Assembly (NCBI GenBank): GCA_965178125.1 | Contig: OZ237742.1 | Coordinates: forward strand, 496,001-560,000 | DNA from: Bilabrum cf. latius | Taxonomy: Eukaryota | DNA: 64,000 nucleotides | Direction of reading: 5' to 3' | Part shown: positions 5,936 to 44,400 of the stretch, in pieces | Layout of the letters: each line of letters opens with the position of its first letter | Position numbering within the stretch: position 1 is the stretch's first letter | Notes under the pieces: generated by a model | Databases searched by the model: none | The model's input: only the letters and a program-made list of their open reading frames with translations | What the model was told of the DNA's origin: nothing | Translations under genes and position numbers: made by a program

Positions 5936-8563
5936 ATGGCGGCAACTAGAAGAAAATTCGTCATAAAGCGGCACACACCGACGAAAGTTTTTACGGTCGA
6001 AAAGGCTCGTGAAACGTGGCAGAAGCTGAAGTCAGCGATCGAGTAGATACAGGGGTAGAATGCTAGCAAGCTTAGTTTCGAGGAGCTCTACAGGTGAGGC
6101 ATGTGCATGCATCGGATGGTTGAAGCGTGCTCGTTCTCGCCAGCCTTGACTATTCGACCGCTTGCCTGGTCTGAAACCATCAACGGCCTTGCAGGTATTC
6201 ATACAATCTTGTTCTTTACAAGCATGGCCACATGCTGTACGATGGGGTGACCATGACGGTACGAAGCTTCCTGCAACAAGTAGCCGAATCCGTGGCGACC
6301 GCTAGCGATAACATGCTGCTGGAGACATTGCAAGATAAGTGGTAGATGCATCAGCTGACAATGAAGATGATTCGTGATATTCTGATGTACATGGTGAGCG
6401 AATGCTGCGTGTGGTCAGCGACCTAATGTGGTTCCGAGCCTCACCTCTGCGTGCTTCATCCCTCTCCATGGCCGGCACTTGCAGGACCGGACATATGTGC
6501 AACAATCCAAATGCCTTTCTGTGTATGAGATGGGGCTACGGGAGTTTCGAAACGTCGTCCTGAGACACGTTCGTGTCGGGGCCCGCGCACGGAACCTGGC
6601 GCTGCAGCAGATCAGGGAGCAGCGGCTCGGCGAGCAGGTTGACACGTCGCTGCTCCGGGGACACTTGCGAATGCTCGTGGAACTCGGGATCGGTAGCCTC
6701 GGGGTCTACGAGAGCGAGTTTGAATCGCAGTTCCTGCGGGACACCCGGGCGTTCTACCGGGAGGAGGCGCAGGACCTCCTCACGGCGAGCACGTGCCCTG
6801 GCTACCTCGCCAGAGCCGAGCAAAGAGTCGTGGAGGAGCGGGAGCGCGTGGGCGAGTACCTGGACATATCCACCGGGACGAAGCTCCGCACCGTGGTGGA
6901 GCAGGAACTGGTAGAGACCCACGCTGCCAGCCTGCTTGAGATGGACACCGGTATCATCCGCATGTTGGACGAGCACCAGATGGAGTACCTGCACCGCCTA
7001 TTCTAGCTGTTTAGCATGGTGAAGAGAACTTAGAAATGGGAGCAGCGCGCGCCAGTCGCAGGCGATGCCAAGGCCTCTGCGGCTGGATCGGTGTCACCGG
7101 CTGCAGCTGCTGCGGCTGGTGGTGCTGCGAGCGGTGCAGGTGCCTCCACTGGTGCTTCTGCGTCAGCTCCGGGCGTGACTCGGGTGCTCACCCCGATAGG
7201 TATCGTCCGAGCCATGATGCAGCAGCACTTGGAGGCGGTGGGCACTCAGCTCCTGGCCGACTCGACCGCCACCAAGGATCCGGTCGCCTTCGTGCGCAAG
7301 CTGCTCGAGCTCAGAGACCACTACGAAAAGGTAGTAAGAGAGGCTTTCCGAGGGAACAGGGAGATGGTCCGCGCCATGAAGGAGAGCTTCGAGAAGTTCC
7401 TCAATGTTGACCACAGGTGCGCCCAGTTCCTGTCGCTGTACGTGGATTCCGAGCTACGGACTGGCTTCAGGGGCCGCACGACGGACGATATCGACCACGA
7501 TCTCAACTGCGTGATCCTCCTGTTTCGGTATCTCCGCGACAAGGACGTCTTCGAGACGTTCTACAAGCAGCACCTGCAGAGGCGTCTGCTGGGTGGCCGG
7601 TCAGCCTCGGACGAGGCGGAGCGCATGATGATTGCTAAGCTCAAGAGCGAGTGCGGGTACCAGTTCACCAGCAACATCGAGGGCATGTTCACGGACCTCA
7701 CCAACAGCCGGGCACTCATGGCCGCGTATACGAAAGCGCTCCGCGAGCGGAGGCGCAAGCTGACCGCGGAGGCGAGCGAACCCAGCGGCGTGGTCCTGAC
7801 GGATGCCATCAACGGCGTCGAGCTTCACGCGACTGTGCTCACGACCGTGCACTGGCCCAACAGCCACGAGCCACCGTGCACCTTGCCCAAGGAAGTGCAG
7901 CCCACCGCGCACCATTTCAAGGACTGGTACCTGCAGTCGCACTCTGGCAGGCTGTTGCGGTGGCACACGGCGCAGGGAACCGCAGAGATCGGGCTCAAGT
8001 ACGCCAACCGGCGGTACGAGATCGTCGCGTCAACGTACCAGATGGCCATGCTATGCCAGTACAACGGAATTGAGACGCCGTCCCTCACCTACAGGCAGAT
8101 CGCGGACGCGACAACCGTCCCCGAGGCGGAGTGCAAGCGCCATCTGCTCTCGCTGACCACCCCGCTTGCGAGGATTCTGATCAAGGAGCGCAAGGGCAAG
8201 GACATCAAGGACGATGACGTGTTTAGGCTGAACCTCGCATTCAAGAGCCCGAAGCTGAGGAACAGAATCAAGCTGATCACGATGAAGAGCGCCACAGGGG
8301 GCACCTCTGCGGCTGCCAGCACCGAGCTGCCCGCACATGTTCTCGCCCAGCGCAACAACATGATCGACGCTGCCGTGGTGCGGATCATGAAGAGCCGAAA
8401 GTCTTTGCAGCACATGGCGCTCATTGCCGAAACTACGAGATAGCTCAGCCAGCGGTTCCAGCCTGACCCTCAGCTGGTGAGGAAGAGGATCGAGAACCTG
8501 ATCGACAGGGACTACCTGGAGCGAGACAATGACGACAGGAGGGTCTACCACTACATCGCGTGA
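5936..8563 (+). CDS. CUL3: Cullin-3; exons 5936-6093, 6195-6393, 6485-8563
   Basis: NASKLSFEELYR|YSYNLVLYKHG, MIRDILMYM|DRTYV, DKDVFETFYKQHLQRRLL, KLKSECGYQFTSNIEGMF, neddylation-site region IDAAVVRIMKSRK and RIENLIDRDYLER. GT-AG introns restore the frame. Internal TAGs (e.g. 7004-7006, 8441-8443); ends TGA. Confidence 0.93.
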
Positions 8564-8963: not shown

Positions 8964-11079
8964 TCACTCCTTGCCCTTGCCGCCCACGTAGTGCTCCCTG
9001 AGCATCCCCTCGTATTTCTCTACGATGTCTCTGCTCTTGGAGTCACCGGCCAAGTTGACCAGGTCCCACGCGTCAAAATCCACGCCAGTTGCCTGGTCGT
9101 CCCTGTGGTCGTAGAGCTCGCGGGCATACGGCTCCGCGTTCCAGTCGACGGTCTGCGTTGTGCCATTCCATGCCCTCCATGAGACGTACCTGTACGACAT
9201 GTCTCTGATCGCGTAGCCCATGTAAGAGAGCTTGCTATCCTTGACCCTATTGCAGCTATCGTCGCCCGTGGCAATGTCGCCGCAGCGTGGGTAGATCGAC
9301 AGGGCGTACTCGTTGGGACCCTTCTCGTTCTCAGGGTCACGCAGCATGGACGCGAGCGACTTGCCATTGCCGACGGTCCCTGCGGGTGTGGGCAGCCCCA
9401 TGACGTCAGCCAGGGTGGGATACATGTCCACCAGCTCGGCAATCCCGCCAGCTCGCTTGCCTCGGTAGCCCGCAGGAGTGGTGTCGGGCGCCCTGATGAT
9501 GAGCGGCACTCGGGTGTGCCCCTCCATGTTGCCTTTTTTCTCCCACTGGCCATTTTCCTAAAGGAAGTAGCCGTGGTCAGCACTGCGAACTCGGTGCAGG
9601 AAGTGTGAGATGGGAAGGGGGCTTGGCCTGCTCTAATTGCAAGCGGTCGCACAAACGAAGCGGGAGCTGCGGCAAGGAACGGCTCAGGCCCAAACACGCG
9701 CAGCTGCGCTCAGAACCAATCTAGAAGCAACCACTGCACTGGCTATCACACTCACTGAAACACCGTCACTGTGTCGTCCCACACGCCCAGCTCCTTGGCC
9801 GTGTCCATGATGGTGCCAAAAAGGTAGTCGGCCATGGACACGCACGCGTAGTAGGCTCTCCGGTTGAGTGCCTCGATGTCCGAGGGGACGGGCGAGGTTC
9901 TGTTCCAAGCAAACGACTTGCCGTCAGCGTCCTTCACGGCGAAATTGTGGATCCAGGCGACGTCTGGGGCCGTCGGGGGAAAGGTCGGGTGCTTGGCGCC
10001 AGCAACGGAGGAAGGGTCGTACATGCCGTAGAACTCGGGGAGGCAGGCCCAGGGCGCGTGGGGCGAGCGCAGCCCTGCCATGATGAAAAAAGGCTCCGGG
10101 TCGCTCCCCTGCAGCTCTTGTTCCCTCTGCTTGGACACGGCAAACTTGAGGTATTCGATCGTCGCGTTCGCGACACCGATGTCGTAAATCAGGGACTGGT
10201 CCGAGGTGGAGCACCAGCCGCCGCCCTCCCCGGCATGAGAGGACCGGGGGCACCTATTTCCTCCCTGGGGGTAGTATGGCTTCTGCTGGCTCCAGCTGTA
10301 GGGCTCATCGTTGTTCGGGGGCTCCCCCGGGCTGCGCGAAGTGAGCAACTGGCGCTGAGCGGCCGCCGGTGGTTAGGTGCAAGGGTGCGCACGAGGAGCT
10401 CAGGCGTGTTACACTGTGGATTAGTGCCTCACTGGTACGTTTTGCCTAGACCGAGGGTGAGGAAGCCGTTCTCCTTGAAGTACTGCGGCATGCTGACGGT
10501 AGTGTTGCCCCCGGGTGCGTCCCGGAAATTCACCAGGAAGTCATAGACAGATATGTTTGTCGGTCGTCGACCGGACATGAAGCTATTTCTGCGGTATTGG
10601 TTCTATCTGGCGGGTGTTGGGGGAATCACAAGGCGGCCATGAGAATAGTGCATAGGCCCCAGTCGCGATGGCTCACCTGCTTGGGCTGCACACAGCAAAC
10701 TACGAATAGGCACGGTCAAATACAACTCCATCCTATGCTAGGCTATCCAAGTGCGGCGTCTGCATGAACTTGTTGCCGTACACGCCGAGCTGGGGCCTCA
10801 TATCGTCGGCCAGGAGATCTGCGCTGCTTGACACTACTAAGGGAGCATGCACGCGATCGCATAAGGAACAAATGAAATCACCATGCACTCATTGATCACA
10901 AATGGAACTTACAAAGCACCTGCGAAAGTATCGTAGCGAAGGACGCAAGAGACCTGTTTCATGTCAAATAACAGGCTTTCTATGGCAGCGACAGAGTCGC
11001 CCAAATCGCTCACGTTCTTTGCCGCATCTCCAACTTGAAAATATGCGAACGCTCCAGCAGCAAAAATGAAACTGCGCAT
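8964..11079 (-). CDS. Secreted iduronate-2-sulfatase-like (formylglycine) sulfatase, ~5 introns
   Basis: Signal-peptide-like MRSFIFAAGAFAYF; KN|VLY|LLADDMRPQLG; AYS(TAG)FAVCSPSR|NSFMSGRRP (CxPSR motif); GKTYHPG; PHAPW; ADHG; TRVPLII; ELYDH; ends TGA 8964-8966. Introns about 10920-11013, 10819-10912, 10590-10676, 10333-10432, 9583-9755. Confidence 0.88.
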
Positions 11080-11256
11080 AGTTTGGTTCAGTCAATAGTA
11101 TACCGTCTCACGAGTGCAGCGGGAAATCAGAATCGGAATGTACGCGTTACTTCAAGATGCAGCCATCGCCTCTCGTGGTCTTCTGTGGCAAAGGCTCGTC
11201 TCTCCGTTGCCGCCTAGCACCAGCACGTGCGCGGGGAACAGCGTGTGTACCACACT

Positions 11257-12248: not shown

Positions 12249-12890
12249 ATGGCACAAGTTTGGGATGAAATCGAGATTGAAGATATGGATTTTAAGGAGA
12301 AGGAGGCCAAATTTTACTACCAGTGCCCCTGTGGAGACCTTTTCTAGATCACTTTGGTGAGATGCCGCCATCAGACCACTTCCCTGTCCACGTTGCCGGA
12401 CATTTCACAGCGTGTGCACCAGCGATGCCTTCAAATCTGTTCTAATTATATTGCAGGACGAACTTATGGACGGAGAGGATATTGCATCTTGTCCGAGCTG
12501 CTCGCTGAAGATTCGCGTGGTTTTTGATGATGTAAGGAAGCTCGTTTGCCGCCTCAACACTGTCCAAGCCAACGCGACACGGTTTTTGTGATATAGACTA
12601 TTTTGATTTACGGCTCGCAGGATGACCTGGAGGACTTTGCGGCAATGGCAGAGGAGGCGCAAATCGAATCTGAGGATGCAGCAGGTGCTGCCGCGGCCGC
12701 GGCAGAGAGCAGTTCTGGGTCTGTCGAGCCGCAGGCGACTACCCGAAGCGCAACTGCTGATCGACTAGCAGCAACGGGAGAAAAGAAATCCGCTGCAGCA
12801 GGAGCTGCGCCGGCGGCCGATTGCAGCTAGCAGGCAGCAATGGCGAAAGCACCCGCCGCAAGTGCAGACGCTCCTGCAAAAGCATCTTAA
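12249..12890 (+). CDS. DPH3: Diphthamide biosynthesis protein 3 (CSL zinc finger) with Ala-rich C-terminal extension; exons 12249-12356, 12457-12531, 12621-12890
   Basis: WDEIEIEDM..FYYQCPCGDLF(TAG)ITL|DELMDGEDIASCPSCSLKIRVVFD matches the DPH3/KTI11 pattern; ends TAA 12888-12890. Absent from the ORF track. Confidence 0.9.
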
Positions 12891-13441
12891 ATCCCGCTAT
12901 GCGCAAGATAGTAGGTGTGTTTATACATGCGCGCCTCCGTGAATATTCGCGGGGGTACCCTCCGAGCAAAAGCAAAGCATGGCGCCAGACAAGCTCGCGC
13001 TGGGGCAGCGCTAGCAGCATCGCCAAAAGGAGTATGACGGCGAAGCGGAAGGCAATAAATCGGCAAAAGAGTGCTATGGCAAAACCGTGTGCACCTTAAT
13101 TTGCTGGCTTCAAGCTGCTGGACCTGTAGATCAGGTTGTGCTGGTCCCCAACTTGAGTGCGTCGCGGTTGCGGCACCATGTGCTGAATGAGCGCGACCCG
13201 AGGAGTCCATGTGACGTGGGAGCCAACATGACAATATGGCCAGGTTTGCATTGGTTGCTCTCGTACAGTATGTACATGAGCAGAGCCGCTGCAGCGCTGA
13301 CCAGCCTGGATGCACTATGATTAGGCCACCAGACGAGGACAGGGCCATGAGCAGGTCAGCACGGAAGAACTTGTGTCTGAATAACAAAGCGTAATGGTAA
13401 ACTAGCAGAGACTATCGTAATCAAGTGTTCACGCGCAGACG

Positions 13442-13876
13442 TCAACCCTCCAGCGACTTTTCGATCTCCCCCACTCTTGTCAATATCTGCGTTCGACTTG
13501 TTTCTAACACTTCACCGCCGAGCATGAACTCGTCTAAGATTACGTACGTTCTGGCAAAGTTGAAAACTAGGTCCAACTCGCAAACGTTGCCAAAGTGACG
13601 ATCCAAGGTCTCCACAAAATTGTGGATGGCTTCCAGGTAAGACAGCTCGTTGTCCCTGGTATCCACGCACAAAATAAAGTATAACCCTGCATATCTCCTG
13701 TACACCAGCTTGTACGACTTGAATTCCACGAAATTAGTAAACTTGGAATCTCGCTGCGTAACGATCTTGTACACCTCCCCTTCGATTCTTCGCTTCTCCT
13801 CCTCCTCCACCGATACGAACCACTTCGACAAACGAGTCTTTCCAATTCGATTCTGGAGCAGGAAAAACCGAATCAT
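13442..13876 (-). CDS. AP2S1: AP-2 clathrin adaptor sigma subunit
   Basis: [68 protein letters not shown]; intronless; ends TGA. Confidence 0.92.
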
Positions 13877-14037
13877 GGTTCTTTGCGTGCCAGTTAATTG
13901 CGCACGTCGTTCCGACCAAAAAAATATCATTTTACTTGTTACATGCACCTTACATTGTGCCCGACAGGACTTGCCAAAATACAAAGCGATTATGTTGTCT
14001 TTAAACAGTCGTACACGCAAGCAACGCCGGGAAGCCA

Positions 14038-15370
14038 TCAGAGGAGCTCAGAATTGGGACGGCTGGCAGCGCCAGACGACGAGCTGCTACTAGCCGTCTG
14101 GCGCGCTCGAGCCGCCGCCGCACCCTGCACTGTCTGCAGCTGGCGATTAACCTTCGCCAGCTGCTCCAGCAGTTCTTGCCTCCTCTGCGCAAGCCCAGTG
14201 TGCACCGACACCAGGCCCTGCACGGCCTCCGCCGGGGAAGGGGCGCAGGCAACTGCCGCACCCTGCCCCGACCCTGCTCCCGCTCCTGACCACGCATCCG
14301 CACCCGCACCCGCGCCGGCAACGGCAGCCGATGCGCCCCTCGAGCCACCAGCACTCCTGCCGACCGCTGCGGCGTTCGAACCCGCCGCCGCGGCATTCTC
14401 AACCTGCTCCTCCAGCAGCTGCTGCTGCCTCCTCTTCTTGGCCTCGGAGTAGTTGAGCACCGGCAGGCCCATCTGGCGGCGCAGTGGGGCCCACAGCCTC
14501 TTGCGGCCGTTGGTCAGCCACACGTTCAGCCTGCCCACCGTGATGCGGGCCCGTCTGGCCATCTCCTGCTTGACTGGCTCGTCTGGCCACGGGAAGTTGA
14601 ACAGCTGGGGGCTCAGCAGCCACTCTCTCAGCATTTTGGTGGTGGATGCGGGCAGAGGCCGACCGCTCTTGAGCTGCTTGCAGTCCTCGTCCGCCATCGA
14701 GGAGGGCAGGGAGGCGCGCTGCTCCGCGGTATCCGGCAGACGGGAATCGGAGCCCTGTCCGGCCGCGGCCTCCTCCAGTCGGGCGCGCGCCTGCGCTGCC
14801 GCGTCGCTGTCCAGCTGAAGCTATTGCTGGTGCCTGTGCTTCTGCGCGGCGGCTGCTCGCCGCCTCAGCCTGCGCCCCGCCACCTGCCCCGCCCCACCCG
14901 AGGATGGCACGGCGTGAGTCTGCATGCCGTGCCCCGCCAGGGAGGCAGACAGCCCCTGGCTGTGGCTCTGGCTCTGGTGTGAAGCGCCCCCCACCATGGG
15001 GAACCCCAGGGGGCCCCTTGCCACCTTGGGGGCGCGCTGCCCGAGCAGAGGCTCCTCGACGGCCCCGCGCTTGCGACCGATCGCCGAGGACTCCATCCCA
15101 CTCGTCACACTCGACTGCCCGTCCAGCTGCCTAAGGCCGTGCGGGAGCTTGGGCTTGGGGCTGCCTCCGGGGAACTGAAGCAGGCTGCCGGTTTGGGGCG
15201 CATACCCGGGCACACTGCCTCCCATGACAGAAGGCAGCAGTCCCGCGGCCGCGCTGGAGGTGGGCGGCATGGTCAAAGCCATTCCCATTGCGGCGCCGTC
15301 CGTTTGCGGAACCTGCAGGGAGGTGCCGTACATGGGCTGCTGCCCGGTCATGTTGGCCGGCAGTGCGGAG

Positions 15371-15418
<48 letters not shown>

Positions 15419-16407
15419 AAAGACAGCACGTTGTGCTCTGAAGAACCGCCCCACGCCATCCCGCCCGGCCCTCGGGACACTCCCGCGACCTCCGACTCGG
15501 AGTCGTTCATGCTGGCGGGTGCGGGCGCCGGCACGGGCGCGATGGCCTCCTGGTAGGCCTGCTCGTCGGCGTTCATGGGAGCGGAACCGGCGCCGCGCAC
15601 CACCCCTCCGGACCCGTACGCGCTGGAGGCTCTACGTGCGCAGTAGGGGTTCTTCAGAGATCGGATCATGGCGTCGATCGCGTCATCGGAGCGCATCTCG
15701 TCGGGGAAATCCGCGATGCCGGCCTTCCCATCCAGAGCCTCGTCGAGCTCCTGCTGCATGGCCGACAGGCTCGATGCCAGGCTCGACGGCGTGCACGACC
15801 CGGAGTTTCTCGAGGACGAGCGGGGGTCCCACTGGCAGCTGCCGGCCCTGCTGCCGCGGCGGCCCCCCAGGCGGTCCGCCGAGGCCGAGCCGGCCGGGCC
15901 GGGCGCGGGGCAGAAGGCCTCCGGGGTCATGGCCGCCTCGCCGCGGGACGCCTGTGCGATGACGCCCGGGCTCAGGGTGCGCAGAGAAGACGTCGGTCCG
16001 GAGCCTCCGCTCGACGATCCTGATCCGCCTCCGATAGAGGGCGAAGATGCGGACATCGTGTCGGAGCCTGCGTAGGAGGCGGCTCGGCCCCTCGCGCTCG
16101 AGCTGCCGGGTGGCATCTCCAGATCAATTTCAGAGAGATTGAACTCCATCTTGTCCTCCCCATGGTCTGCGATTCCTTTCACCCGAGCCATCCAGGCCGC
16201 GCGTTCCTTCCCGCTCATTTCTCCGCCGTGCACAAGAGACATAGCACCGGGAGGAGCCACGCCTTCAGACGGGAACCAGCATACGGCACATGAAAGGTTT
16301 TCGCCGGGGGCAGCCTCTGCGCCTTGCTTCCAGTCATTCTCATTCGTGTCGAGCGAGAAATCAGCTAGCCAGTTCGCGTTAGGGTTGCGGTCGATTTGCT
16401 CCGACAT
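14038..16407 (-). CDS. TALE-class (Homeobox_KN) homeodomain protein, ~789 aa
   Basis: [55 protein letters not shown]. ORFs 14821..16407 and 14038..14697 are in one frame, joined through TAG in a Gln run (cag caa tag ctt cag); ends TGA. Confidence 0.8.
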
Positions 16408-17240
16408 TTGTCTGATGTTCGGTCACGGTTTCTGCTCTTGGAGGAAGAAGGAAAGCAAGGAAAGGGGGTAGCGCAAGAACAGAGCGCTCAACTCAAGACA
16501 TTGAGCGGAGCAGCATGAACAGAACAACTGTCAGCTGTTCCATGCATGAACACCAACAATTGATGAACCCAAGCGACATACTCAGCACCACACCGCCAAA
16601 TATAATTGAATGTGCCTATCAAATCGACAAGCCGCTCCGCTTCAACGAAGACAACCCAAAGGCGATGCATGGGTGCAAGCGTACTACGGACCTGCCAAAA
16701 TGTTCGAACGGCTACAGAGCTATGGATCCGAGGGGCAAACCGTGTAGCTGCCGACATGTATTACCAAAGCACTAATTTATTAATGCGTAGGCTTTGACTG
16801 TCCCTGACCGGTGGATTGGCACCGCCGCAAACAGGGTGAAGAAGAACGCTAAGGGCGAGAAGCGAGGCTTATACTGTAACAAAGCGACTTCGAACACATA
16901 TTACGCAAAATATCTTCTTCATATCATACATGTGAATCCCTTGGATACGTAAAACTACAAGTCAGCATCGTGCACGGGCCCATCAACCTCAAAAGGGTGT
17001 TAACACGTTCAACGCCGCACCAGACATCAAACGATCTGCAAGAAGCACCTCTCTTTAGTTTAAATCCATCAAGTCAATCAATCTCACAATGAGTATCTAT
17101 ATAAATTCTTGGTAAAACCCACCAGAAAGCCTCCTGAGAGACGCGTAGGTACGGGTGGCAGCATACGGGAGCGATTCGTCGATCCTCATGAAAAATCAGA
17201 TTTACGTTGAATGTAACGTAATGCTATGCATGCGTACACT

Positions 17241-18821
17241 TCAGTACACTTCCTTTCCGCTAACGTCGCTACCTGAGCCCCATCCAGCCACCAAAACGGC
17301 CTTCACCGCTTCGTACACACCCCAGCTCAGCGCCATGGAGGGCGCTGTTTTTGCAACCCTCGCCCAAGACCCGGCGAACATGGCTCGCATGCCTCCCTCG
17401 GCCCACACCTTGCCAGCCGTGTCAACCACCCCCACGTACTGCGGTGCAACGGCACCATGACCCCCCTGGCTGCGCAAGGACGGCGTGGATGACGCTCGCT
17501 GCGACGATTTCGAGTAGAAGAAAGCAACCTGCGGCCGGCCGCCCCCTCCTTGCGTGCCACTCCCGCCGCCGGACCCTTGCGCACCACTGACGCTCCCTAA
17601 CCCACCCTTCACCCCGCCAAGCAGCTCCCCAGCCGCCCCCTTGGCTGCAGATACCAGCCCCCTGCCCACATGCAGGTTTCTACCTCCCTATCGACCGGCT
17701 CCATGGCCCTGCCCGCCAGTCGCAGTAGACCCTCCCTATCGACCGGCTCCATGGCCCTGCCCGCCAGTCGCAGTAGACCCTCCCTATCGACAAGCTCCGT
17801 GGCCCTGCCCGCCAGTCGCAGTAGACCCGCAAGCACCCCCGCCGGCTGCTGCCGTGCCCGCTCGCAGCGCCATGCCCGGCTCCATCGACGGGCCCGCTCC
17901 CATGCTCGGACTAGGGGCGTGCAAGCCCTGAGTCTGCAGCCTCGTCTTGATGACGTCGAATGGGTTTGTCGCGAGAGCGGCGATGCCCCCAGCCACCGCG
18001 CCGGCGCCGAGCGCCGTCCCGATCGACACGTTTCCCGAGGGGTCAATGACCTTCCGGAGGGACTCGTTGGAGGCGACCATCACGGCCTGGAAGGGGACAC
18101 TCATCGCCACAGTCGTGGGGTAGGACCGGAAGAAGGCCATCAGGCCCTCCTTGCGGAGCACCTGCCTGGCGCAGTCGAGCGTGCCTCGGTACAGCCCGAG
18201 CTGCAGCCGCTGCTTGACGACATCGACCGGCGTGAGGATCAAATCATGCAGCATTGTTGCAGCTGCACCAGCAGAAGCGGCTGCTAGCGGGTGGTGCCCC
18301 GGCTTGTTGGCGCCAGTCGCCTCTTTGGCATATTCGTACACGGAGAAGAAGGCGGCGTGAGACGGAACGCAGCCCGCCGCGACTGTTGGGGCGCCGCGCC
18401 ATAGTTCTCGCATGCCGTGCTATCGCATAAATGTCTTGAAGCGAAGTGGCGCCTAACCAGCCGTGCGGCGAACCTACAAGTGAGTCTGCGAGGACAATGA
18501 AACCGCCAATGGTGCGCAGCAGGGATGATTGCCGCGTCTTTACAATTCGTGTGACATTTGGCGCCCACCAAGCATACACAGGAGATCATCCAACAAATTG
18601 GATAGTCCCGAGAGCCGAGGCGGCCGGTAAGGCTTTGGTTGCCAGATCGGCCAGCGTCACGTGCCACGTCCGTCATCCCTTGCCCATCTCACCTTGTATG
18701 TGTCAAGAGGAAACATCCCCACATGCTCAGCAATACCTGCTGCTGCCCCTGCAATCATATGAATTTTGAAGGAGCCCTTGCTTGGGTTCCAATCTTCCCA
18801 GTCCTCATCCCAGTCAGACAT
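17241..18821 (-). CDS. Mitochondrial carrier, mitoferrin-like (SLC25A28/37, MRS3/4); intron 18486-18692
   Basis: HMIAGAAAGIAEHVGMFPLDTYK|THL(TAG); GCVPSHAAFFSVYE; HDLILTPVDVVKQRLQ; AFFRSYPTTVAMSVPF; NPFDVIKTRLQ; APSMALSWGVYE; ends TGA. Confidence 0.88.
17684..17828 (-). repeat. 48-bp tandem repeat x3 inside the mitoferrin CDS (GGSTATGGQGHGAGR+TAG)
   Basis: Plus-strand unit ctccctatcgaccggctccatggccctgcccgccagtcgcagtagacc occurs three times with minor variants. Confidence 0.9.
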
Positions 18822-19179
18822 GGCTGATGTTCACTGATTCTGTCGGCCACGCGCGCTTCTAGAAGCCGACTTAAGTTGGAAACTTGGATGGCCAAGATGT
18901 GGGCTCCAGTGAAAGTGTATAGATTGAAAAAGCGTTGCTTTCCTACCCTCTCGCAACTGCTGCCTGAGGCCCTGCAAGTTGACAAAACCACAATCGACGA
19001 TGACTGGCGATGGCGGTTGCAACCTTCCATAGATTCGGCACACGTCTTTGTGTGCCTGATTGCATGGGCAATGCGAGGGGACAGAAACCATAAATCCTGC
19101 CGAGATGTCTCAATTCGTCAACAAGCATGGTTGAAGGCCACTCTTACCCCTCCCCTGCACCACATGCAATGTGTGACGC

Positions 19180-21234
19180 TCAGACTTGGTCGTCGTCGTC
19201 GTCCAGCAGCATGTCGTAGCCTCCGAATGCAGATGCTGCAGGAGCAGGGACGGAAGCAGGAGCAGGGGCAGGTGTGGGAGCAGGGGCAGGGGCGGGAGCA
19301 GCTGTCCCTGCCCCCGAGACCTCCCCGCTTGTACTGGCAGCAGCCTTGCCCGGGGACTGAGGCTGCCCCCTCTTTGCCTTCAGCTCGTCCAGCAGGCCGT
19401 CCAGCTGCACCGAGGCGGGGGACGAGGGGCGTTCCGTGTGCCGAGTGTCCTTGTCCCCGTCCTCCGGCTCCGAGTCGCCCACGGCTGGGCGCGGTAGCGA
19501 GCTGTTCCCACGCCCGGGGCTGCCAGTGGGGTCAGCGCGTGACGGCTTGCCAGCCGGCTCGGACTCGGGCGGCTTGCTGCTGCTGGCCCCTCGTCCAGCT
19601 GCAGCTGCAGTTGCAGTGGCTGCAGGCTCGACGGCCGGTGCCCCCGCTGCCTTCGGCTGGGCACTGCCGGATTGTTCCCCCAGCCCGGAGCCTGCTCCTC
19701 GAGGAATAACACCCTTGTCCGAGCCCGCCTAGCCACTCGTCACACCCCCAAACAGCGAGGGCGCGGCCTGGATGGCCGCCTGCAGCAGGTCGCTCCGCGC
19801 CCTGACTTCGAACCTCACAGGCCGCAGCACCTGCTCGGAGGCCATCTGGGCCATGCCGGGGGGACCCTGCGGGCCGCCAGGGCTGGCGGCCTGCCGTGCT
19901 CCCGCCATCGCGAGCAGCTGTGCGTTGGTGAGCGGCAGCGGGCCAAGGGCATGTACGGCGAATGACCCCGACACCCGCGCGGCAAGCAGCCTGCGAGCGC
20001 CCGCCTGCCCGGGGAGCATACACGCGCCGTGCAGCATGCAAACTACGGCACGCAAAGTCAGAGCCTTCTCCGTCTCGAGGCGCGAGCCCCTCGGTCCATC
20101 GACTCGAGCACCTGCTTGGGTGCTCGCACCGAACGCTCGAGCCAGCGCGTCGAGGTGCACGGGCATGGGCGCGTCCTCTGCAGAGATGAGACCCTCCGCA
20201 ATCAGAGGATCCGGGGCGGGAGAGCCAAATTCATCGGTATGCCCGAAGGCCTCGTCGGACCGCACGCCGGCGTGCGAGGACGGCGAGGGAGCAGCGTGGA
20301 GCGCCTCGGCCAGCACATCGAAGACGCCGTCCCTCTAGGAGCGAAGGAGAACCTTCAGAGCCACGACTGCGGTCAAAGCGAATGTTCGTTCAATCCCACC
20401 GAGCGAACCGGCCCCGGCGGCGCTGCGTGCGGCCGGCCTGCTGCTTCCAGGACCTGCTCGGAGCAGCTCGTCGAGCGAGGCGCTCGAGTCCTCGCTATGC
20501 TTTCTCGTGGCCGCCTGCAGCAGGCTGCGGACTGGAATGGATTTCTACGAAGCACCCCCTGCGGACACGGACGACTTGGCCAGCTCGCACGCCAAGGCTG
20601 CTAGGGCGTCACCATCTGCTGCCAGGTCCTGCGAGCCTCCAGCGTCAGCCGTCAAGTCTCGCCAGCACAAAATCTGCGACACTGCCTCGATGCTAAAGTT
20701 TGATGCCTCATCAAACTCATCGTCATTTGTCTTGGAGTCTCCGCCGGAAGCGCCAGAAAGGTGCGACTGTCGGATCACGCCCAGGCCACCGCTGCTTGCC
20801 GTGCGGCCGGCCAGCTGCGGCTCCACAGCGCTCATATAGGCGCACAGCCAAGCTACGAGCTCATTGGCTGCAATTGAATTCAACCTTACATCTGCGTATT
20901 GAGGGTACGCGTTGGCATCTGCAACGTATACACAATGGATCTACTTGGGTCGGTTGACTCCAGCACTCCAGCAGTGTGTAGCACTCACGCGCGCGTGAAG
21001 CGCATTGCTAGCGGATGTATTGCGTAATATATTACATCATTGCACAATCTTACCTCCAGACGCCGCACACAACAAGTGGCCAGCGGCAGATTCTACTCCA
21101 TCCCCGCCATCATCGGCTCCGTGCATGGCCCTAAGCTGCCTGGCTGCATTAGCCGCAAGCTTGCCGGCCAGAGCGAAGTGCTCGGAAAACGGTGAACCGG
21201 ACACAGGGAACGATTGTACAGCTCGCAAACTCAT
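19180..21234 (-). CDS. Hypothetical protein; 5' exon structure uncertain
   Basis: ORFs 20545..20883, 19729..20316 and 19180..19482 share a frame with TAG interruptions; ends TGA 19180-19182. Putative first exon 21234-21054 (gccATG start, GTAAG donor). Confidence 0.55.
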
Positions 21235-21387
21235 GGCTGCGACAGTGCTGCTTAGATACCCATTCGAAGCCCCGTGCCAAGAAGCATCGCATTGCCCAGT
21301 TGATCCGGTCGCAGCTTGCGGTCGCACAGGCAGGCACCACTTTTATGCTGATCGCCAGTCGCAACGCATCCTCCCGCGTTGCATCCT

Positions 21388-22827
21388 TTAATTATCTGGA
21401 GAAATTAGTGAGAACTTGGCAGCCATGAGCAAGTGGTCGCTTGGCATCCTTTCGCAAGGCAGCCGATCCGGCCCAATGTCCTCATCTGTGGGCAGCGCAA
21501 GCACCCCATCGATCGCCAGCTACAGAGGAGCAGGGGCCAGGCCGTCGGCCTCCCCAGGGCAATCAAACCAAAGTCTCTTCTCTGCGCTATCCGAACCCGG
21601 CGCCTCCTTCCCTTTCTCTGGAGCACTTGCTCCGTGCTCGCCCCTCCCGCTCTGCACCATGATGAAATCAATCGCCCTGCGCTTGGCGACTTCCTTGCCG
21701 CCCACCAGCCTGTGCTTGGTGGTCGTAAACTCCACGGCACGAGGACCGCCCAGCATCTCGCTGTAGGCGCATTGCATTGCAGGGAGTCCGAACCGCAGAT
21801 CGTCTAGCACGCTCGTCGTGGCGGTCGATGAGGCAATCTGAGAGGATGCCTGTGCGGCAGTTGCAGCGCCGGCCATGGCGACACTCGCTGCATCCTCACA
21901 TGAAACCCCTGCTGCACCCCCACTCGTCACACCACCATCCTTGTCACCGCGGTACCGATCCCCCGTAAGCAGTGCAAACACCGACGCGCTCGGCCCGGGC
22001 CTGCCGCTGGCCGCCGCTCTCGACAGCGCCGGATCGGCAGGGGGGCTCTCCTCGCCCAGCTCACCGCCGCCGTACGAGGCACCCGGCTCCGGGCGGCGGA
22101 ACACGGGCCGGGCCGTGGACACGTGGAGCGGGGTAACAGGTTCCGCCGGTCCATCGGCGGTTGTGTTGAAGTCCCCGCAGAATATGAAGGGGCAGGACCC
22201 TGGCAGCTGGCCTCGCGCTCGCATGGCTCGCTGGGAAACTCGCAGGATCTGCCTGACCTGATGGACGCGTGTCTGCTCGTTTCCCACGGCTTCCTTAGCC
22301 TTCAAGTGCGATGTGGCAACCATTAAATCAAACGGAGCTCCCTCCGGCGCGGACGCACCATCGGTGCATTTAAGAACGGCAAGAATCGCCCTCGCCTTCG
22401 TTGGCTTGCCTTCAGGGGAGACCAAGCTGATGCCCTGCGTTGATACCAGACGAAAGGCCGATGCCCTGACGCAAATTGCAACTCCATCGGCCGTAACGCC
22501 CGACGAGACCGCAGGGGACGCCCCTCCGGATACGTAGCAGCTAGTGTATCCGGCCGCCTCCATCGCCGGCCCGACAGTGTCCTCCCAGCGTGACACTTCT
22601 TGCAGACATACTACGTCAGCATCTGCCCGTTCAATACATTTTAGCAGTCCTGTCCACCTTTTGTCGAACGACATGTCCAGCTTGGCTCGTGGAAAGCCAC
22701 CGAACTCGGCCAGTCCGTCCGCGAGAATATTGAATTGGGCCAGGGTAAATGAAGAACGGCTCCCAACACGTGGTAGCCCATCTGCCATGATCCATGATCT
22801 CTTAAGGAGGCCACCACCTGCGGACAT
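21388..22827 (-). CDS. Nocturnin/CCR4-like EEP-family phosphoesterase
   Basis: QFNILADGL, DVVCLQEV, ATSHLKAK, FCGDFNT, EFTTTK, IDFIM. The terminal catalytic PSDHL motif lies downstream of TAG 21520-21522; ends TAA 21388-21390. Confidence 0.85.
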
Positions 22828-30480: not shown

Positions 30481-33300
30481 ATGTCCCACGTTGTGTATCA
30501 CTAGTTTATATGGAGACGGGGAGGTGACAGCGTACAGGTCACAGGTAGCTTCAGAGGATGGAAGGATGGGGTCCCCATGCAGAAGCTCGCAGATGGCAGT
30601 TACGGTGAGATGGATTTGCTGGCGCTGCACCACTCCTTAATTAGTTATCAGTCGTCCTGGAGCGGGCTAAACCATGTGCTTCGCTGCTGAGGTCCTCTTG
30701 CCACGTGAATCAGTCGATTCTATCTGGTTGAAATCAGCGTCGCAGTGGCATACGTGCAACTTCCTGCGAATTCGAGAATTCACTACAAGTACATTGTGGA
30801 CCGAAATTGGTAGTATGATCCATCCGCTTCATGGGAACATGATGGGTACGGCAACATCAACAACGTGCTGATAACTGAAGGCACCGCAAGATCGGGTTCA
30901 GCTGGACTACCAGGAGGCAGTCCGCCCGGCTCCGCGGTGGCCGAAAAAGCATCCTCACATGATGATTCCCCCTTACCTGATGGAATCTACCAGCCCGAAG
31001 CATTGTCTGCCGAAGCTGCAACGGCAATGCACGAGGCCAACGCATTCAGCATGGCCCTTGCTCACCCGTCAGGCTCTGGCCGCGGCGACACCACTGGCAT
31101 GAGAACCGCCGCCGCTGGTCCCGCGGGGTCTGATTCAGGATCGCTTGCCGCTACCATGGCAGGCATGCGTGCGAGATCGGATGGCTCTAGCTCCGCCGGT
31201 GGTCAGCATGCGGCTCGCGCAGCGGAGGGCAGACTGCTGATCGAGTCGGCACTGCTGGACGGCGGGCCAGTGGAAGTCCCCGAGATCGCGCGGCCTTTCA
31301 TGCAGTGGGCCACCCCTGCAGAGGTGGTGGCAGCGGTCCGCTCGATGCGCACCACGCCACCAGTCCCGCAGGAAGTGAGTGAAGGCGGCGGCGATCCCAC
31401 CACCACCACCACCGCCACCCCACAGGGCGAAGATAGGGCCAGGCCTGCCGGCATCACGTCCAAGGAGACCCACGATGAGGCTGAGAGTCCCACCGACGCA
31501 CCTCCCGACTCACCCATGGGCGAGGGCATGCCAGAGAGTCCCAGAATCACGGTGCAGTCGCTCACGGGAGCCACTGGGTCCGGGCCTGGATCTGCGACGG
31601 CCCCCCGTCCCGTGGCTCGCAGCGAGAAGGGATCAGAGGACACACTGGGCCTGAAAGTGGCGGCGGGTCTGGACTAGATCATCGGAGGGGGGCGCGTGTC
31701 CAGCACGGGCGAGATGCGGAACATCAAGGACGACAAGGCGCGCTCCAATGACCTGCACGTCCACATGAAAGAGTACGGTCTAGAACCTGTGACGGTTGCT
31801 GCGGCCGGTGCCGCCGCACCGGCGGCATCGTCATCCGGGGGCGGTTCGTCCACGGCACCTGCAGAGGCCCTGCAGGCCCTGAGGGCCTCGTTTGTCGAGC
31901 AGAGCGACTCCCAGGCAGCCGCGTACAAGCATGCGCGGACGGCTGGAGCCGCCGGTGCTGCATCCGGGACGTCCCCTGGCGCGCCATCTGACGCGTCCGT
32001 GCTGAGCTCTGGCCGAACCACCGGCAGAGGCGCCGGAGGCAGCACAACGATGCTGTCGCACGTTGCCGCCACTGTGAGGAAGGAGGGCAAGCTGGTCATC
32101 GCCGTCGTGGGGCTGCCGGCCCGCGGCAAGACGTACATCGCGCGCAAGCTGAAGCGGCACCTTACCTGGATGGGTCTCAAGACAGAGATATATAATGTGG
32201 GCAACTACCGTAGGAAGCATATCGGGGCGGCACAGCCGGCCGGTTTCTTCGATCCGTCCAACAGGGAAGGTGTGCGCCTGCGGCGGCAGATGGCCAGCGC
32301 CGCGCTGGAGGAAATGATGCGAGCGTTGCAGGGCGATGTGGACATTGCCGTGTTCGATGCCACCAACTCGAGCAGGGATCGGCGGGCCTGGCTACGGTCC
32401 GCGCTGGCGTCCCAGTTCGGCGACACGGTGCGGCTCATGTTCCTTGAAAGCATCTGCACAGATGAAGCAACCATTCGGAGCAACGTGCGCGAGACCAAGC
32501 TGAAAAGCCCCGACTACCAGCACATGACGGAGGCTGAGGCCGTCTCGGATTTCTTGCAGCGGATCGCGCACTACGTCAAGGTGTACTAGCCTGTGGACGA
32601 GACGGAAGACGTCCCTTACATCAAGCTGGTAGACGTAGGACGTTAGATCGTTGCGAATCGGGTGCAGGGATACCTGAACTCAAGGATTATGTTCTTCTTG
32701 TCCAACCTGCACATCACCCCGAGGCCTATCTGGATCACTCGGCACGGGGAGTCGCAGTATAATGTCCTCGGCAGGATCGGGGGCGACAGCAAGCTGTCAC
32801 CCCGGGGATCGGAGTACAGCCGAAGGCTGGCAGAGTTCATGAAGCGGCACTATCCCGACGAGAAGCGGCTGACGGTGTGGACCTCGACGCTGCGACGGAC
32901 ATCTGAGACGGGGCAGCACCTGGAGCAGGAGCTGGTCCAGTGGAAGCAGCTCGACGAGATCGAGGCCGGCGTGTGCGACGGGATGACGTACGAGGCCATC
33001 GCAGCGACCATGCCGGACGAGTATCGCGCCAGAGCCAAGGACAAGTACAACTACAGGTATCCCAGGGGGGAGTCCTACCGCGACCTGACCCACCGGCTGG
33101 AACCTGTCATCATGGAGTTGATGCGGCAGAAGGGACCTGTGCTCATTATTTCGCACCAGGCCACCCTTCGCGTGCTCTATGCGTATCTTACCGACAAGCC
33201 GCCGTCTTCCTGCCCCAAGCTCATGATGCCGCTGCATACGTTGGTGCAACTCACGCCTAAAGCATACGGCTGTGAGGAGGTGCGGCATGAACTCATGTGA
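30481..33300 (+). CDS. PFKFB: Bifunctional 6-phosphofructo-2-kinase/fructose-2,6-bisphosphatase with N-terminal CBM48 (AMPK-beta-type) domain; intron 30605-30745
   Basis: VGLPARGKTYIARKL P-loop, FDATNSSRDRR, TKLKSPDY, ITRHGESQYN, LDEIEAG, RYPRGESY, ISHQA. N-terminus FIWRRGGDSVQVTGSFRGW..YKYIVDRNW(TAG)YDP..DGYGNINN; ends TGA. Confidence 0.92.
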
Positions 33301-41428: not shown

Positions 41429-44400
41429 TCAGAACGACGCTGCCTCTCTACAGATAGAGCAACCAAGGGCCTCTTCATCCCCGATGGGCGCATGGCTGCC
41501 TCCAAATGGGCAAGGACCTTCCAGCTGCTTGCCGAGCGGACCCGCTGGGCACTTGGGGAGCTTGCCGTCCTTCTTCATCTGTGGGCCCACTCCAGGCCGG
41601 TTGTGGCAGTCCCCACAAAAGTGAGTTGTTCCCCAACAGAACCAAACTGCAGGAGAGCAGCAGAACTGGCACCGCCACTGGATAAAGTCGGTGCCGTGCT
41701 TGGGGCAGGCGGCATCAGCAGCCATTGGCTGGCACGACGGGCAGATCAGCTCGCTCTTGTCGAATTCCGGGGCACCAGCTGCTCTGCACATATGCCTTCC
41801 ACCATAGTATGGTTTGCTGCATTTAAAGCACTCCATGTAGTCAAACTCGTGCAACGCAAACGCGAGCTTGTCCCCGCCGTAGTCCGCCTTGATCGCAGGG
41901 TCATTCTCTAGGTTTTCGTACCTCAACCGCATCAAAGCACGCTTGTGGTGTTCCTATTGCACCTTAAGCAAAGGATCAATTAGGTCAGAAAGAGCAGGGT
42001 GGTCCATCTGCTGCCGGCAAGTCATGCAGCCAAGGAACTTCCAAGAGATCTCGGGTCCTGGGTATCCAGACTTGACCCTTTGCTGAGCGCAGTGCTAATG
42101 GAAATTGTGACCACAGCTAAGATGGACACAGGGAGCTTCGTTAAGTGCTTCCGTGTAGCAGGCGGTGCACATATCCTCTCCTTCGATGTTGACTCCGTCA
42201 CACCCCTGGAAGCACGGCATGTGCTTCTCCTCGCCCTTCACGCCGAAACACATGTGGCCGCACTCGAGCAGCGCGCCGCAGGCTTTGGACGCATACTCCT
42301 CGCAGTCCTCGTCGTTGCACACGTCTCGCAGGCCGGGCCCCTCGAACTCCTTCGAGGTTCTGTTCTGCTCAGAGAGGCCCGTCTTGCAGAAGCGGCATTC
42401 CGAGGTGCCTGCCGATGCCTGCGCACCGGACGATCCTGCCGAGAACGGGTCCTTCTTGAAGTCGAGTACGGCCAGGAATTTGCCATTGTATACCACACAG
42501 TGCAACCAAGAGAACTTGACTCTGGCAGTGTCCCCTCCACCGGTGGTTTCGAGCGATGGCAGTCGCTTTGCCAGCCTCTGACGCACTTCCGCTTCGGTAG
42601 GCAGCTCGAGCTTTTTCTGAAGAGCCGCCTTGGCCTCCGCCACGGCCTTGCGGGCCTCTTCGGACAGCTGTGGTTCCTGTGCCGCAGGACTTCCGGCTTC
42701 CAAGTCCTCTTCCTTAGACTCCTCCTTCAGGGGCTTTCTTCGGTGTCCGCGGACAGATCGAGGCAGGTGCAGCACCTTGTCGCATTCAGCGCACGTAAAC
42801 AGGGGCCGGTTGAGACCGCGCAGCTTGCCGCAATCGAGGCACTCGAAGTCCGCTTCCGTTTCGCCATCATCGTGCTGGTCGCAGTAGCACACAAGGGGGC
42901 GGATGTAAGCCTCAGCCTGCTTCTCCTTGGATAACTCTGTCGCTGGGGGCAAGATGCCGTCCAGGTCGGTGCGCTTCGCAAGCTCTTCGTCGCCTCGGAT
43001 GAGGGCGAGGGCACCGACCGCGAGCCACGAGCGCGCAAAGTACGCCACCTTGACAGGGGCAGAGACTGCTTGCTCCGCGCGTGCAGCCAGCGACAAGATA
43101 GTGGCCCCGACCACGCTCTTGATTCTGGTGGACCAGCCGCTGCTGGCGCTCCTGCCCATATCCAACGACGTCACCTTGGGCTTCTTGTGCTGTTCCAGCC
43201 CGGCGTCCTTCGCGATGTCGCTGTGAGACAGCAGCGGATACACCAGCTGGCGGGTTATCACTTTGGCACGCTCTGACAAGCTATCGGCCTTCTCGACACT
43301 CAGCAGACGGGCACTGTCACCAGCGGCAAAGCGAGCCGCTGCTACGGCCTCTGGATCGAGTGGAGGAGGTGACGCACCGGACGCAGCCCCGCTACCAGCC
43401 GCAACAGCTTCTCCGAGTATTTCTGCGGCCGCCGCTGCCGCCTCTTCCGGGGGATGGCCAAACTCTGAATCAATGGCAAATGGGTCGGCGGCTCCTGCCC
43501 CACTCGCGGCTGCTCCGGCCTCCGCCTGCGCCATAGCCTGCGCACTGGCTGCCTCGGCGATCTCGTTCAGGGCCTCTTTCGCCGCATCGGTGCCCTTGTC
43601 CTGCTCCCACAGCTGACGTAATAGCCTGACGAGTCCTCGAGCCACCCCGTGGTCCACGCTACCTACGACGCCCAACCGATCGCTCATGACCGCCTTACCG
43701 CTCACTGACCTACCGCCAGCCTTACCCCTCACCTGCATCTCAAACGCCTTGGCAATGACCATGAGAATTGCCACGACGATGCCAGCACGTCCGCTCTCCA
43801 TGTGGGCAGCATCGTCTGCGCTCAGGTCTGGCAGCTGCGATGCCGAATCCACGGACTTCAAGGCATCCTTCGCCATGGATTCCGGGAGGCATTCCCTCTG
43901 CACCTTGATGGAGGAATCGAGGCTGGACGGCGCCACCAGCGGAAGCACTCGCCTGAGGACGCCAAGGATGGATCTCTGGATCCTTGGCGAGCCCAGGGGC
44001 AGCAGCCTTAGCAGCTGAGGGACAATCCTGGAGGCAGACTTGACAACCTTAAGCTAGCCAGGCTTGGTCCCGACGAGTGCGTGGAGCATCTCGACCATTT
44101 CGAACATGTGCGCCTCCTGCGCGGGCGACGATGCAGTCTTGAGCGCTTCTGCACCAGCGGTGGCGCTGCGCTGGCCCCGCCCCGCCTGGCGCACCGCTGC
44201 CGCGGCGATGCTCCCGAGACGCTAGGCTTCCATCTCGACCTCGCCGGCCACGAGGTTGAAGACGTTGTGCTGCAAGCCAGAGAGGGCCGCCCTCGCAGGT
44301 GCGAGTGCCTCTGCGCTGCCGTGCACGCCAAACAGAAGGCTCGCGACCCTGTGACGGACGTCCGAAGCATCCTTCGCGAACTGAGGCGACGCAATCGCCT

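Follow-up and report, generated by a model that had tools for sequence, protein, structure and literature searches.

Evidence that UAG is read as glutamine while UAA is kept as a stop in a 64-kb window of eukaryotic DNA

Can UAG be a sense codon at this locus while UAA remains a stop? The preliminary description of the window (the whole 64-kb stretch of DNA analysed here) had proposed exactly this split, with UAG as sense and UAA and UGA as stops. Frame counts, a flank test and gene ends upheld this coding inference. The nuclear code is very probably NCBI table 15, in which UAG is an ordinary Gln codon and UAA and UGA are the sole terminators, with UGA preferred.

We determined how the open frames of the 64-kb window respond when a stop triplet is read as sense. 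With TAG read, the longest open frame grew from 730 to 6372 codons; with TAA read instead, it stayed at 730 codons, with no gain. The summed length of frames of at least 150 aa was 33,311 aa, rising to 54,913 aa with TAG read and to 38,496 aa with TAA read. In 13 genes of the window (17,519 codons), we observed 113 in-frame TAG, 0 TAA and 0 TGA, which bears out the earlier remark that the long frames hold no in-frame TAA. The two off-frames of the same 13 genes contained TAA 42 and 73 times and TAG 130 and 117 times, and the antisense frames of this DNA contained 28-87 TAA. The in-frame density of TAG (113, versus 117-131 for each remaining frame of this DNA) equals the off-frame density; TAG is not avoided. 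UAG made up ~0.65% of codons and ~1/6 of G-ending Gln codons. In the flank test, coding-like, stop-free sequence was present on both sides of 27 of 913 TAG triplets, 0 of 413 TAA triplets and 0 of 1562 TGA triplets.

Two genes of the window, DPH3 and nocturnin, end at TAA. Their features are as follows (positions in the window):

12249..12890, + strand: DPH3/Kti11 gene; exons 12249-12356, 12457-12531 and 12621-12890; 150 codons including 2 TAG
12345..12347, + strand: in-frame TAG in DPH3 exon 1; Gln of yeast Kti11 CPCGDRFQI, A in the mouse homologue
12357-12456 and 12532-12620, + strand: DPH3 introns, GT-AG; both spliced out in RNA contigs of X6, X7 and X8, not in those of X5
12828..12830, + strand: second in-frame TAG of DPH3, 20 codons ahead of the TAA in an Ala-rich tail that is not conserved; RNA contigs without differing letters
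12888..12890, + strand: DPH3 TAA stop; next in-frame TGA 49 codons further; this end lacks a homology anchor
21388..22827, - strand: nocturnin/CCR4-type EEP phosphodiesterase gene; a single TAG (21522..21520) among 479 codons
21388..21390, - strand: nocturnin TAA stop, at the usual family C-terminus, within 4-5 residues of the end of the human nocturnin alignment
21343..21345, - strand: second in-frame TAA (tandem stop), 15 codons past the nocturnin stop

The DPH3 exon model was backed by spliced RNA contigs from three runs in two studies, and exon 1 matched yeast Kti11 and DPH3 (E 4e-8). The nocturnin gene matched Pfam Exo_endo_phos (3e-11) and human nocturnin (E 5e-16), the latter in two aligned stretches reaching residue 475 of 479. 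Past the aligned end, 4 residues follow in the window nocturnin, 7 in the human NOCT construct and 2 in ANGEL2. Both TAA codons were found where they had been described, at 12888-12890 for DPH3 and at 21388-21390 for nocturnin (CDS 22827..21391 and TAA 21390..21388, - strand). The spacing given for nocturnin, 11 codons after PSDHL, was incorrect: the TAA is the 14th codon, with 13 codons between.

The other genes considered here end at TGA:

6398..8563, + strand: Cullin-3-like gene, last large exon; 3 TAG; RVYHYIA then TGA, the family C-terminus
8964..11091, - strand: iduronate-sulfatase-like gene; several introns, TAG codons inside; TGA stop 8966..8964
13442..13876, - strand: clathrin-adaptor sigma subunit gene; Pfam Clat_adaptor_s 5e-53; no TAG; TGA stop 13444..13442
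14038..16422, - strand: TALE (KN) homeobox gene frame; 1 TAG; TGA stop; 5' intron 16432-17087 seen in RNA
17241..18485, - strand: mitochondrial carrier, last exon; Pfam Mito_carr 7e-46; 6 TAG; TGA stop
19180..20891, - strand: main exon of a gene without assigned function; 3 TAG in the exon; TGA stop
30709..33300, + strand: CBM-6-phosphofructo-2-kinase/fructose-2,6-bisphosphatase (PFK2) gene; 4 TAG; EVRHELM then TGA
41429..60547, - strand: MYCBP2/Highwire-like giant E3 ligase, single-exon frame; 6372 codons, 37 TAG, 0 TAA; TGA at the family C-terminus

The intron upstream of the mitochondrial carrier exon (18486-18692) has its joint in X6, X7 and X8, and three of the six TAG codons of this exon lie within a 3x 16-residue Gly-rich repeat. 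A 162-nt intron (20892-21053) links the exon at 19180..20891 to an upstream exon in the nocturnin frame (X6 record 13), and one X6 RNA contig spans nocturnin, both TAA codons and the next gene in the same frame, which leaves formal room for occasional UAA read-through. The genome is described as GC-rich, compact and intron-poor. Among cullin homologues, the best full-length matches had 38-43% identity over the whole query and one shorter unnamed match had 51% over two thirds of it; the cullin homologue search returned no near-identical named protein.

We assessed gene ends in 15 modelled genes of the 64-kb window. Thirteen end at TGA, none at TAG and two at TAA (nocturnin and DPH3), of which only the nocturnin end is homology-anchored. 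The earlier statement that all other genes end at TGA was therefore true for the 13 other modelled genes. The internal and terminal codon count suggested in the preliminary description, run within the window, gave 0 internal and 2/15 terminal TAA against 113 internal and 0/15 terminal TAG. Four C-termini are anchored by homology, and TAG stands at 0/4: the cullin has YHYIA then TGA, PFK2 has EVRHELM then TGA, likewise in its closest relatives, the RCR domain of MYCBP2 ends at TGA (the human domain aligns through its last residue), and nocturnin ends at TAA. In 13/15 genes the stop is backed up by another in-frame TGA or TAA no more than 16 codons downstream. Several genes carry a TAG 12-44 codons from the true stop, among them the HSF gene, with TAG 12 codons ahead of TGA. 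UAA and UGA are wholly excluded from the reading frames, and one or the other closes every gene.

Spliced RNA contigs of X6-X8 span 11 TAG codons (our own reckoning from the listed RNA contig ranges) and both TAA stops. We observed no differing letters, so these TAG and TAA codons are unedited and are not assembly errors. UAG is a frequent, unavoided and unedited in-frame codon. The public protein P0001, a standard-code call with 99% identity, breaks off precisely where the third cullin TAG stands, and public call P0128 comprises the PFK2 tail only. Standard-code public gene calls for this organism, such as these two, are truncated at each TAG, and annotation, orthology and BUSCO scores for the genome are wrong unless table 15 is applied.

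Alignment to homologues indicates that the meaning of UAG is glutamine. At the third cullin TAG, 102/119 homologues have Q, and Q is the plurality residue at the second PFK2 TAG (54/119) and the second aldo-keto reductase (AKR) TAG (34/125). Log-odds summed over seven alignable TAG sites gave Gln +11.7 bits, followed by H at -4.2; K came eighth (-11.5 bits), and L and S were outside the best eight. Homologues at the first PFK2 TAG have E in 107/119 cases, yet Q in 4/9 of the closest. Other residues occur elsewhere: one sulfatase TAG falls on the Gly conserved in the DHGxxLGEHG motif, two MYCBP2 TAG codons align to L and E in the human protein, and one AKR TAG is at a V/L/R column.

The sample comprised the 64-kb window and one 7.5-kb metagenome contig from a related species (L001). 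Its PFK2 shares 88% aa identity in the domain and 76% nt identity with the window PFK2. All four TAG codons of the window PFK2 are CAG in the L001 orthologue, and counted over both species, every PFK2 TAG site (5/5) has CAG as its counterpart. UAG and CAG thus interchange between two related species. In a poorly conserved neighbour gene (43% identity), 0/10 aligned TAG positions face a Gln codon on L001. Over 1658 codons, L001 has 7 in-frame TAG, 0 TAA and 0 TGA; its species has the same code as the window.

Codes of the table 6 type, in which UAA and UAG both mean Gln, are known in many ciliates, Dasycladales and other ulvophytes, diplomonads, oxymonads and Amoeboaphelidium. These lineages share the shift from stop to Gln with the window but read both codons as sense, whereas TAA is never in frame in the window. 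That both codons are reassigned here as well, with TAA missing merely through GC richness, is very improbable. Of the three stop triplets TAA is indeed the least frequent (413 versus 915 TAG over the whole window, both strands), and the long frames mostly have a third-position GC of 0.64-0.80 (0.55 in one long frame). A-ending codons are nevertheless common in the same frames: CAA 150, AAA 153, GAA 332 and CTA 95. By arithmetic from the codon counts of these genes, a TAA:TAG ratio equal to CAA:CAG (150:551) predicts ~31 in-frame TAA, and the lowest A-ending share (~14%, CTA and TTA) predicts ~18, for which the Poisson probability of zero is ~1e-8. Because ~18-31 were expected and none was observed, as against 42 and 73 off-frame, the deficit is far outside chance or GC bias. 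L001 likewise has no in-frame TAA, and two window genes end in TAA. With in-frame UAA at Gln positions in 0/17,519 codons against ~31 expected, we rejected a table 6 type code. Even less credible is that the TAG codons are artefacts, whether pseudogenes, assembly errors or sites of mRNA editing to CAG; nothing favours this beyond the standard-code callers cutting these genes (P0001, P0128). Intron-spliced RNA contigs keep the TAG codons, gene decay could not have left a frame of 6372 codons in which 37 TAG are the only stop triplets, and TAG sites swap with CAG in a second species. These observations contradict an artefact or editing, and we rejected this reading.

In ambiguous stop/sense codes, such as those of Condylostoma, karyorelictids, Blastocrithidia and Amoebophrya sp. 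Kv, the codon that has been reassigned still closes genes as well. Such dual use of UAG, with sense inside genes and termination close to mRNA 3' ends (the pattern of Condylostoma, karyorelictids and Amoebophrya sp. Kv), is improbable here. The DPH3 and HSF proteins could end at the TAG codons 20 and 12 codons before their stops, the former in an unconserved tail. However, TAG ends 0/15 genes and 0/4 homology-anchored C-termini (a small sample), shows no in-frame avoidance, and in several genes stands 12-44 codons away from the true stop. Ambiguous codes are described as usually depleted of the codon near true stops (PMC11687900). The same table 15 code could also operate through a UAG-blind eRF1 and near-cognate tRNA-Gln(CUG), with a first-position mismatch and no dedicated suppressor tRNA. 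We consider this unlikely. It has a precedent, in that read-through of UAG/UAA in organisms with the standard code is reportedly driven by near-cognate tRNA-Gln (PMC13192750). In its favour, too, no tRNA(CUA) was seen in the window, where ARAGORN found no tRNA genes in 64 kb. Full UAG density (113 in 17,519 codons; 37 in one gene of 6372 codons) demands efficient decoding, which argues against it. A cognate tRNA(CUA) was reportedly found in the study of exLh and Iotanema spirale.

The preliminary description also proposed an eRF1 that accepts UAA and UGA but not UAG, together with a CUA-anticodon tRNA only, which is a reasonable proposal given the similar cases of Iotanema and the rhizarian exLh (PMC5304391). 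In such a scheme UAG would be decoded by a dedicated tRNA-Gln(CUA). This tRNA would be one mutation away from tRNA-Gln(CUG) and would be unable to read UAA because C34 pairs only with G. On the same analogy, the eRF1 N-domain would recognise UAG inefficiently and still recognise UAA and UGA. The eRF1 gene is absent from the 64-kb window.

The uncoupling of UAA from UAG had been presented as unusual. It is real in the window, but its unusualness was overstated: UAG-only cases have been in print since 2017, and NCBI lists the code as table 15. Uncoupling of this kind was already known, and any novelty could lie at most in the lineage. One possible source of the window and L001 is a eukaryotic lineage outside both ciliates and fornicates for which this code is unreported, and they would then represent a further independent origin of UAG-only reassignment to Gln; we hold this tentatively, at slightly less than even confidence. 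If true, a GC-rich, UGA-main lineage with full-density UAG would be useful for asking how eRF1 separates UAG from UAA, and convenient, since public RNA and DNA runs exist and at least two species are involved. The lineage could also represent a host-type candidate for viruses with the same split code. Each independent UAG-only reassignment tests the idea of a UAA-UAG lock imposed by wobble-reading tRNAs and a single eRF1, and setting a GC-rich UGA-main lineage against UAA-main ciliates could reveal which eRF1 changes are truly required. The uncoupling in the window is an added case and not a new principle.

Known carriers of a UAG=Gln-only code are Iotanema spirale, Protocruzia and two phyllopharyngean ciliates (PMC5304391, PMC11687900). 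Iotanema spirale (Fornicata) resembles the window as a non-ciliate protist in which UAG alone became Gln and UAA was kept as a stop; it is described there as an anaerobic metamonad known from a transcriptome (PMC5304391). The window, by contrast, has 52-70% GC, a mitochondrial-carrier gene and ordinary protein evolution rates. Hartmannula sinica, Trochilia petrani and Protocruzia tuzeti have the same code as the window, and the evidence there was likewise UAG inside genes where Gln is conserved, together with C-termini at the other stops (PMC11687900). UAA is the main stop in those ciliates, at 93.5-100% of aligned C-termini (PMC11687900), whereas UGA is the main stop in the window (13/15). 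The window also differs from them in being a chromosome stretch that carries multiple genes within 64 kb and has GT-AG introns of 89-656 nt. UAG and UAA are also uncoupled, with UAA as a stop, in the rhizarian exLh (Leu), some ciliates (Leu) and Scotinosphaera (Ser) (PMC5304391; PMC11687900); the residue there is Leu or Ser, whereas in the window it is Gln (+11.7 bits; PFK2 5/5 CAG).

Reading TAG as a sense codon extended the longest stop-to-stop frame in the window from 730 codons under the standard code to 6372 codons, in line with the proposal of the preliminary description that UAG is sense here. Reading TAA as sense instead left the longest frame at 730 codons. The 13 long frames contained 113-114 in-frame TAG codons. 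This density (113 per 17,519 codons) was matched in the other five frames of these sequences (95-131), indicating that TAG is not avoided at all. We observed coding-like, stop-free flanks on both sides of 27 of 913 TAG codons, compared with 0 of 413 TAA and 0 of 1562 TGA; this test took 40 codons symmetrically on each side and serves as a control only, because its codon-usage classifier is weak (27 of 913 TAG passed). TAG is a sense codon in the window genes.

The window is a stretch of a eukaryotic nuclear genome with a GC content of 52-70% (2-kb bins). It is compact, with few introns and genes in co-oriented blocks. Gene identities were assigned from Pfam or PDB sequence matches:

1176-5732, plus strand: HSF-type factor
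6398-8563, plus strand: cullin-3-like protein, ending at 8563
8964-11091, minus strand: iduronate-sulfatase-like gene with several introns
12249-12890, plus strand: DPH3
13442-13876, minus strand: clathrin-adaptor sigma subunit
14038-16422, minus strand: TALE homeobox protein
17241-18485, minus strand, plus an upstream exon: mitochondrial carrier
19180-20891, minus strand, plus an upstream exon: gene without functional assignment
21388-22827, minus strand: nocturnin-type phosphodiesterase
23124-24218, plus strand: aldo-keto reductase (AKR)
30709-33300, plus strand: CBM-PFK2/FBPase-2
41429-60526, minus strand: MYCBP2/Highwire-like E3 ligase, 6365 residues in a single exon
Three further large proteins without Pfam families

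Genes lie on the plus strand up to ~12.9 kb and mostly on the minus strand thereafter, and the sign of the GC skew flips near 12-14 kb. No tRNA genes were found within the window, and no Rfam family reached its gathering score there. The giant E3 ligase (41429-60526, minus strand) carries RCC1-like, two PHR, SPRY and RING plus RCR domains, and the CBM-PFK2/FBPase-2 protein (30709-33300, plus strand) has an AMPK-type carbohydrate-binding module at its N-terminus. In the mitochondrial carrier, a 16-residue Gly-rich unit (GGSTATGGQGHGAGRQ) occurs three times (17690-17786, minus strand) with a TAG in each copy, so the TAG was duplicated together with the repeat. A 2205-codon protein contains ~20 tandem 18-residue units (KATGSQSSGAGPMQGVWS; ~38800-40200, minus strand). 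A GAC/GAG-rich low-complexity stretch in the TALE gene (15374-15424) draws hundreds of multi-mapping contigs; the depth spikes and 'goes back' joints at these positions resemble a repeat artefact more than a biological signal.

We observed no in-frame TAA in 17,519 codons, as had been noted for the long frames. The off-frames of the same codons contained 42 and 73 TAA in sense and 28-87 in antisense. TGA was likewise absent in frame, compared with 121-360 occurrences in the other frames. Codons ending in A were not rare in the window genes (CAA 150 vs CAG 551, AAA 153, GAA 332, CTA 95, TTA 34). From these codon counts, ~31 in-frame TAA would be expected if TAA:TAG followed CAA:CAG, and ~18 at the lowest observed share of A-ending codons. 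The exclusion of TAA is real and is more than GC bias.

The 15 modelled genes end in TGA (13 genes) or TAA (DPH3 and nocturnin), and none ends in TAG. Four C-termini were anchored by homology. The cullin ends in YHYIA followed by TGA, and PFK2 ends in EVRHELM followed by TGA, identical to the end of its closest relatives. For the MYCBP2 RCR domain, the human construct aligns through to its final residue, after which comes TGA. The alignment to human nocturnin runs to residue 475 of 479 in the window protein, followed by TAA, with a second in-frame TAA 15 codons past the stop. The preliminary description located both TAA stops correctly; it counted 11 codons between PSDHL and the nocturnin stop, where there are 13. 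The position of the DPH3 TAA stands, but this end is less firm than described, given an in-frame TAG 20 codons upstream in an Ala-rich tail without homologues.

Alignments with homologues identify glutamine as the amino acid encoded by TAG. At the third cullin TAG, the column holds Q in 102 of 119 homologues and H in 15. The second PFK2 TAG falls in a column where 54 of 119 homologues have Q, 38 have K and 19 have T; at the first, E prevails (107 of 119, Q in 11), and Q is present in four of the nine closest sequences. The DPH3 TAG aligns with Q in the yeast motif CPCGDRFQI, and the second AKR TAG with Q in 34 of 125 homologues (hits of 250-400 aa, out of 150 hits listed). Over seven alignable TAG sites, with one gappy site left out, the summed log-odds favored Gln (+11.7 bits), with His next at −4.2. 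Misfits were one sulfatase TAG at the Gly of a DHGxxLGEHG motif, two TAG where human MYCBP2 has L and E, and one AKR TAG in a V/L/R column.

The strongest single result for the code is the interchange of TAG and CAG with a contig from a related species (L001; 7525 nt, 57% GC), found by scanning metagenome contigs with the PFK2 domain. L001 shares the code and the arrangement of PFK2 with its divergent neighbour gene, and its PFK2 domain is 88% identical to that of the window in protein and 76% in DNA. Across 855 aligned codons, all four PFK2 TAG sites of the window are CAG in L001, and the only PFK2 TAG of L001 is CAG in the window, within a conserved ISHQATL stretch (5/5 sites interchanged across both orthologues). 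The 1658 codons of L001 include 7 in-frame TAG, 0 TAA and 0 TGA, and its PFK2 likewise terminates in EVRHELM and TGA. In the fast-evolving neighbour gene (43% identity), various codons, none of them for Gln, stand opposite the 10 TAG positions that align; we regard this alignment as uninformative. Downstream of PFK2, L001 has no clear orthologue of the neighbouring gene of the window. A second contig from the scan (L002) was AT-rich (37% GC) and unrelated, and was dropped.

Contigs from three sequencing runs in two studies (X6, X7 and X8) lack both introns of DPH3 as well as the carrier intron and further ones, all with GT-AG ends, whereas contigs from a fourth run (X5) retain them, indicating that X6-X8 derive from spliced RNA. 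None of the matching runs listed is recorded as RNA; three labelled 'RNA?' gave the spliced contigs. As reckoned from contig ranges, these contigs span 11 TAG codons and both TAA stops. No letters differing from the window were reported in them, so the TAG and TAA codons are unedited. A standard-code cullin call from an independent assembly (P0001, 99% identical) has its end precisely at the third TAG of the cullin gene. A second database protein (P0128) comprises only the part of PFK2 after the last TAG (32050-33300). Proteins of this organism called publicly under the standard code are truncated at TAG. Overall, these data support the earlier coding reading, with UAG as sense and UAA and UGA as stops, and confirm the observation behind it.

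The RNA contigs do not mark transcript ends. One spliced X6 contig (19024-22122, minus strand) extends from the nocturnin interior across both TAA and, beyond an intron of 162 nt (20892-21053), into the following gene, which is in the same reading frame as nocturnin; it may reflect overlapping transcripts, a shared transcript or an assembler merge. DPH3 contigs extend 430-510 nt beyond the TAA (12890-13402, plus strand), reflecting either an unusually long 3' UTR or overlap with the transcript of the convergent neighbour. TALE-gene contigs end 50-65 nt beyond the TGA, and adaptor-sigma contigs begin ~10 nt upstream of the ATG.

In a FastTree phylogeny (57 rows: 27 named hits plus unnamed hits ranked 2-35), the window cullin joined three environmental or Logan proteins, the join with P0034 being flagged as long-branch, and fell outside the dinoflagellate, oomycete, diatom and plant/green-alga groups. 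No named protein was closer to this cullin than 41%. The nearest named relatives of PFK2 were myxobacterial (Sorangium and Polyangium, 51-55% identity), with environmental proteins ahead at 60-67%. Matches to the RCR domain of the giant E3 ligase comprised 62 database proteins (3500-11139 aa), nearly all of them from animals and including the choanoflagellate Salpingoeca; we drew no placement from them because this length filter favours well-annotated animals.

The code is demonstrated from sequence; the decoding machinery is proposed by analogy. The simplest machinery, as reported or proposed for known UAG-only lineages, would combine a tRNA-Gln with anticodon CUA, which would decode UAG and be unable to read UAA, with an altered eRF1 whose recognition of the G in UAG is weakened. 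According to PMC5304391, eRF1 carries T32G in the GTS motif of Iotanema and Ala at position 69 in the rhizarian exLh. Near-cognate reading of UAG by the normal tRNA-Gln(CUG) is possible, but we consider it less likely in view of the 37 UAG codons that one gene of 6372 codons contains.

The premise that UAA and UAG are usually reassigned together is correct, with exceptions published since 2017. NCBI table 15 specifies exactly UAG as glutamine with UAA and UGA as stops. UAG is read as Gln with UAA as stop in Iotanema spirale and as Leu in a rhizarian (PMC5304391). UAG is also Gln in Hartmannula sinica, Trochilia petrani and Protocruzia tuzeti, Leu in other ciliates and Ser in Scotinosphaera (PMC11687900). 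The contextual reading of all three stops described for the AT-rich Amoebophrya sp. Kv (PMC12005148) does not fit the window. We found no report of a UAG=Gln-only code in a GC-rich lineage outside ciliates and fornicates, in a literature search lying mostly outside subscription journals, a result that speaks only weakly for an unpublished case. Compared with the ciliate UAG-only cases, the main stop here is UGA, and the window is a long, multi-gene, GC-rich chromosome stretch. Its code is a further case, in at most a new lineage, of an already known UAG-only reassignment.
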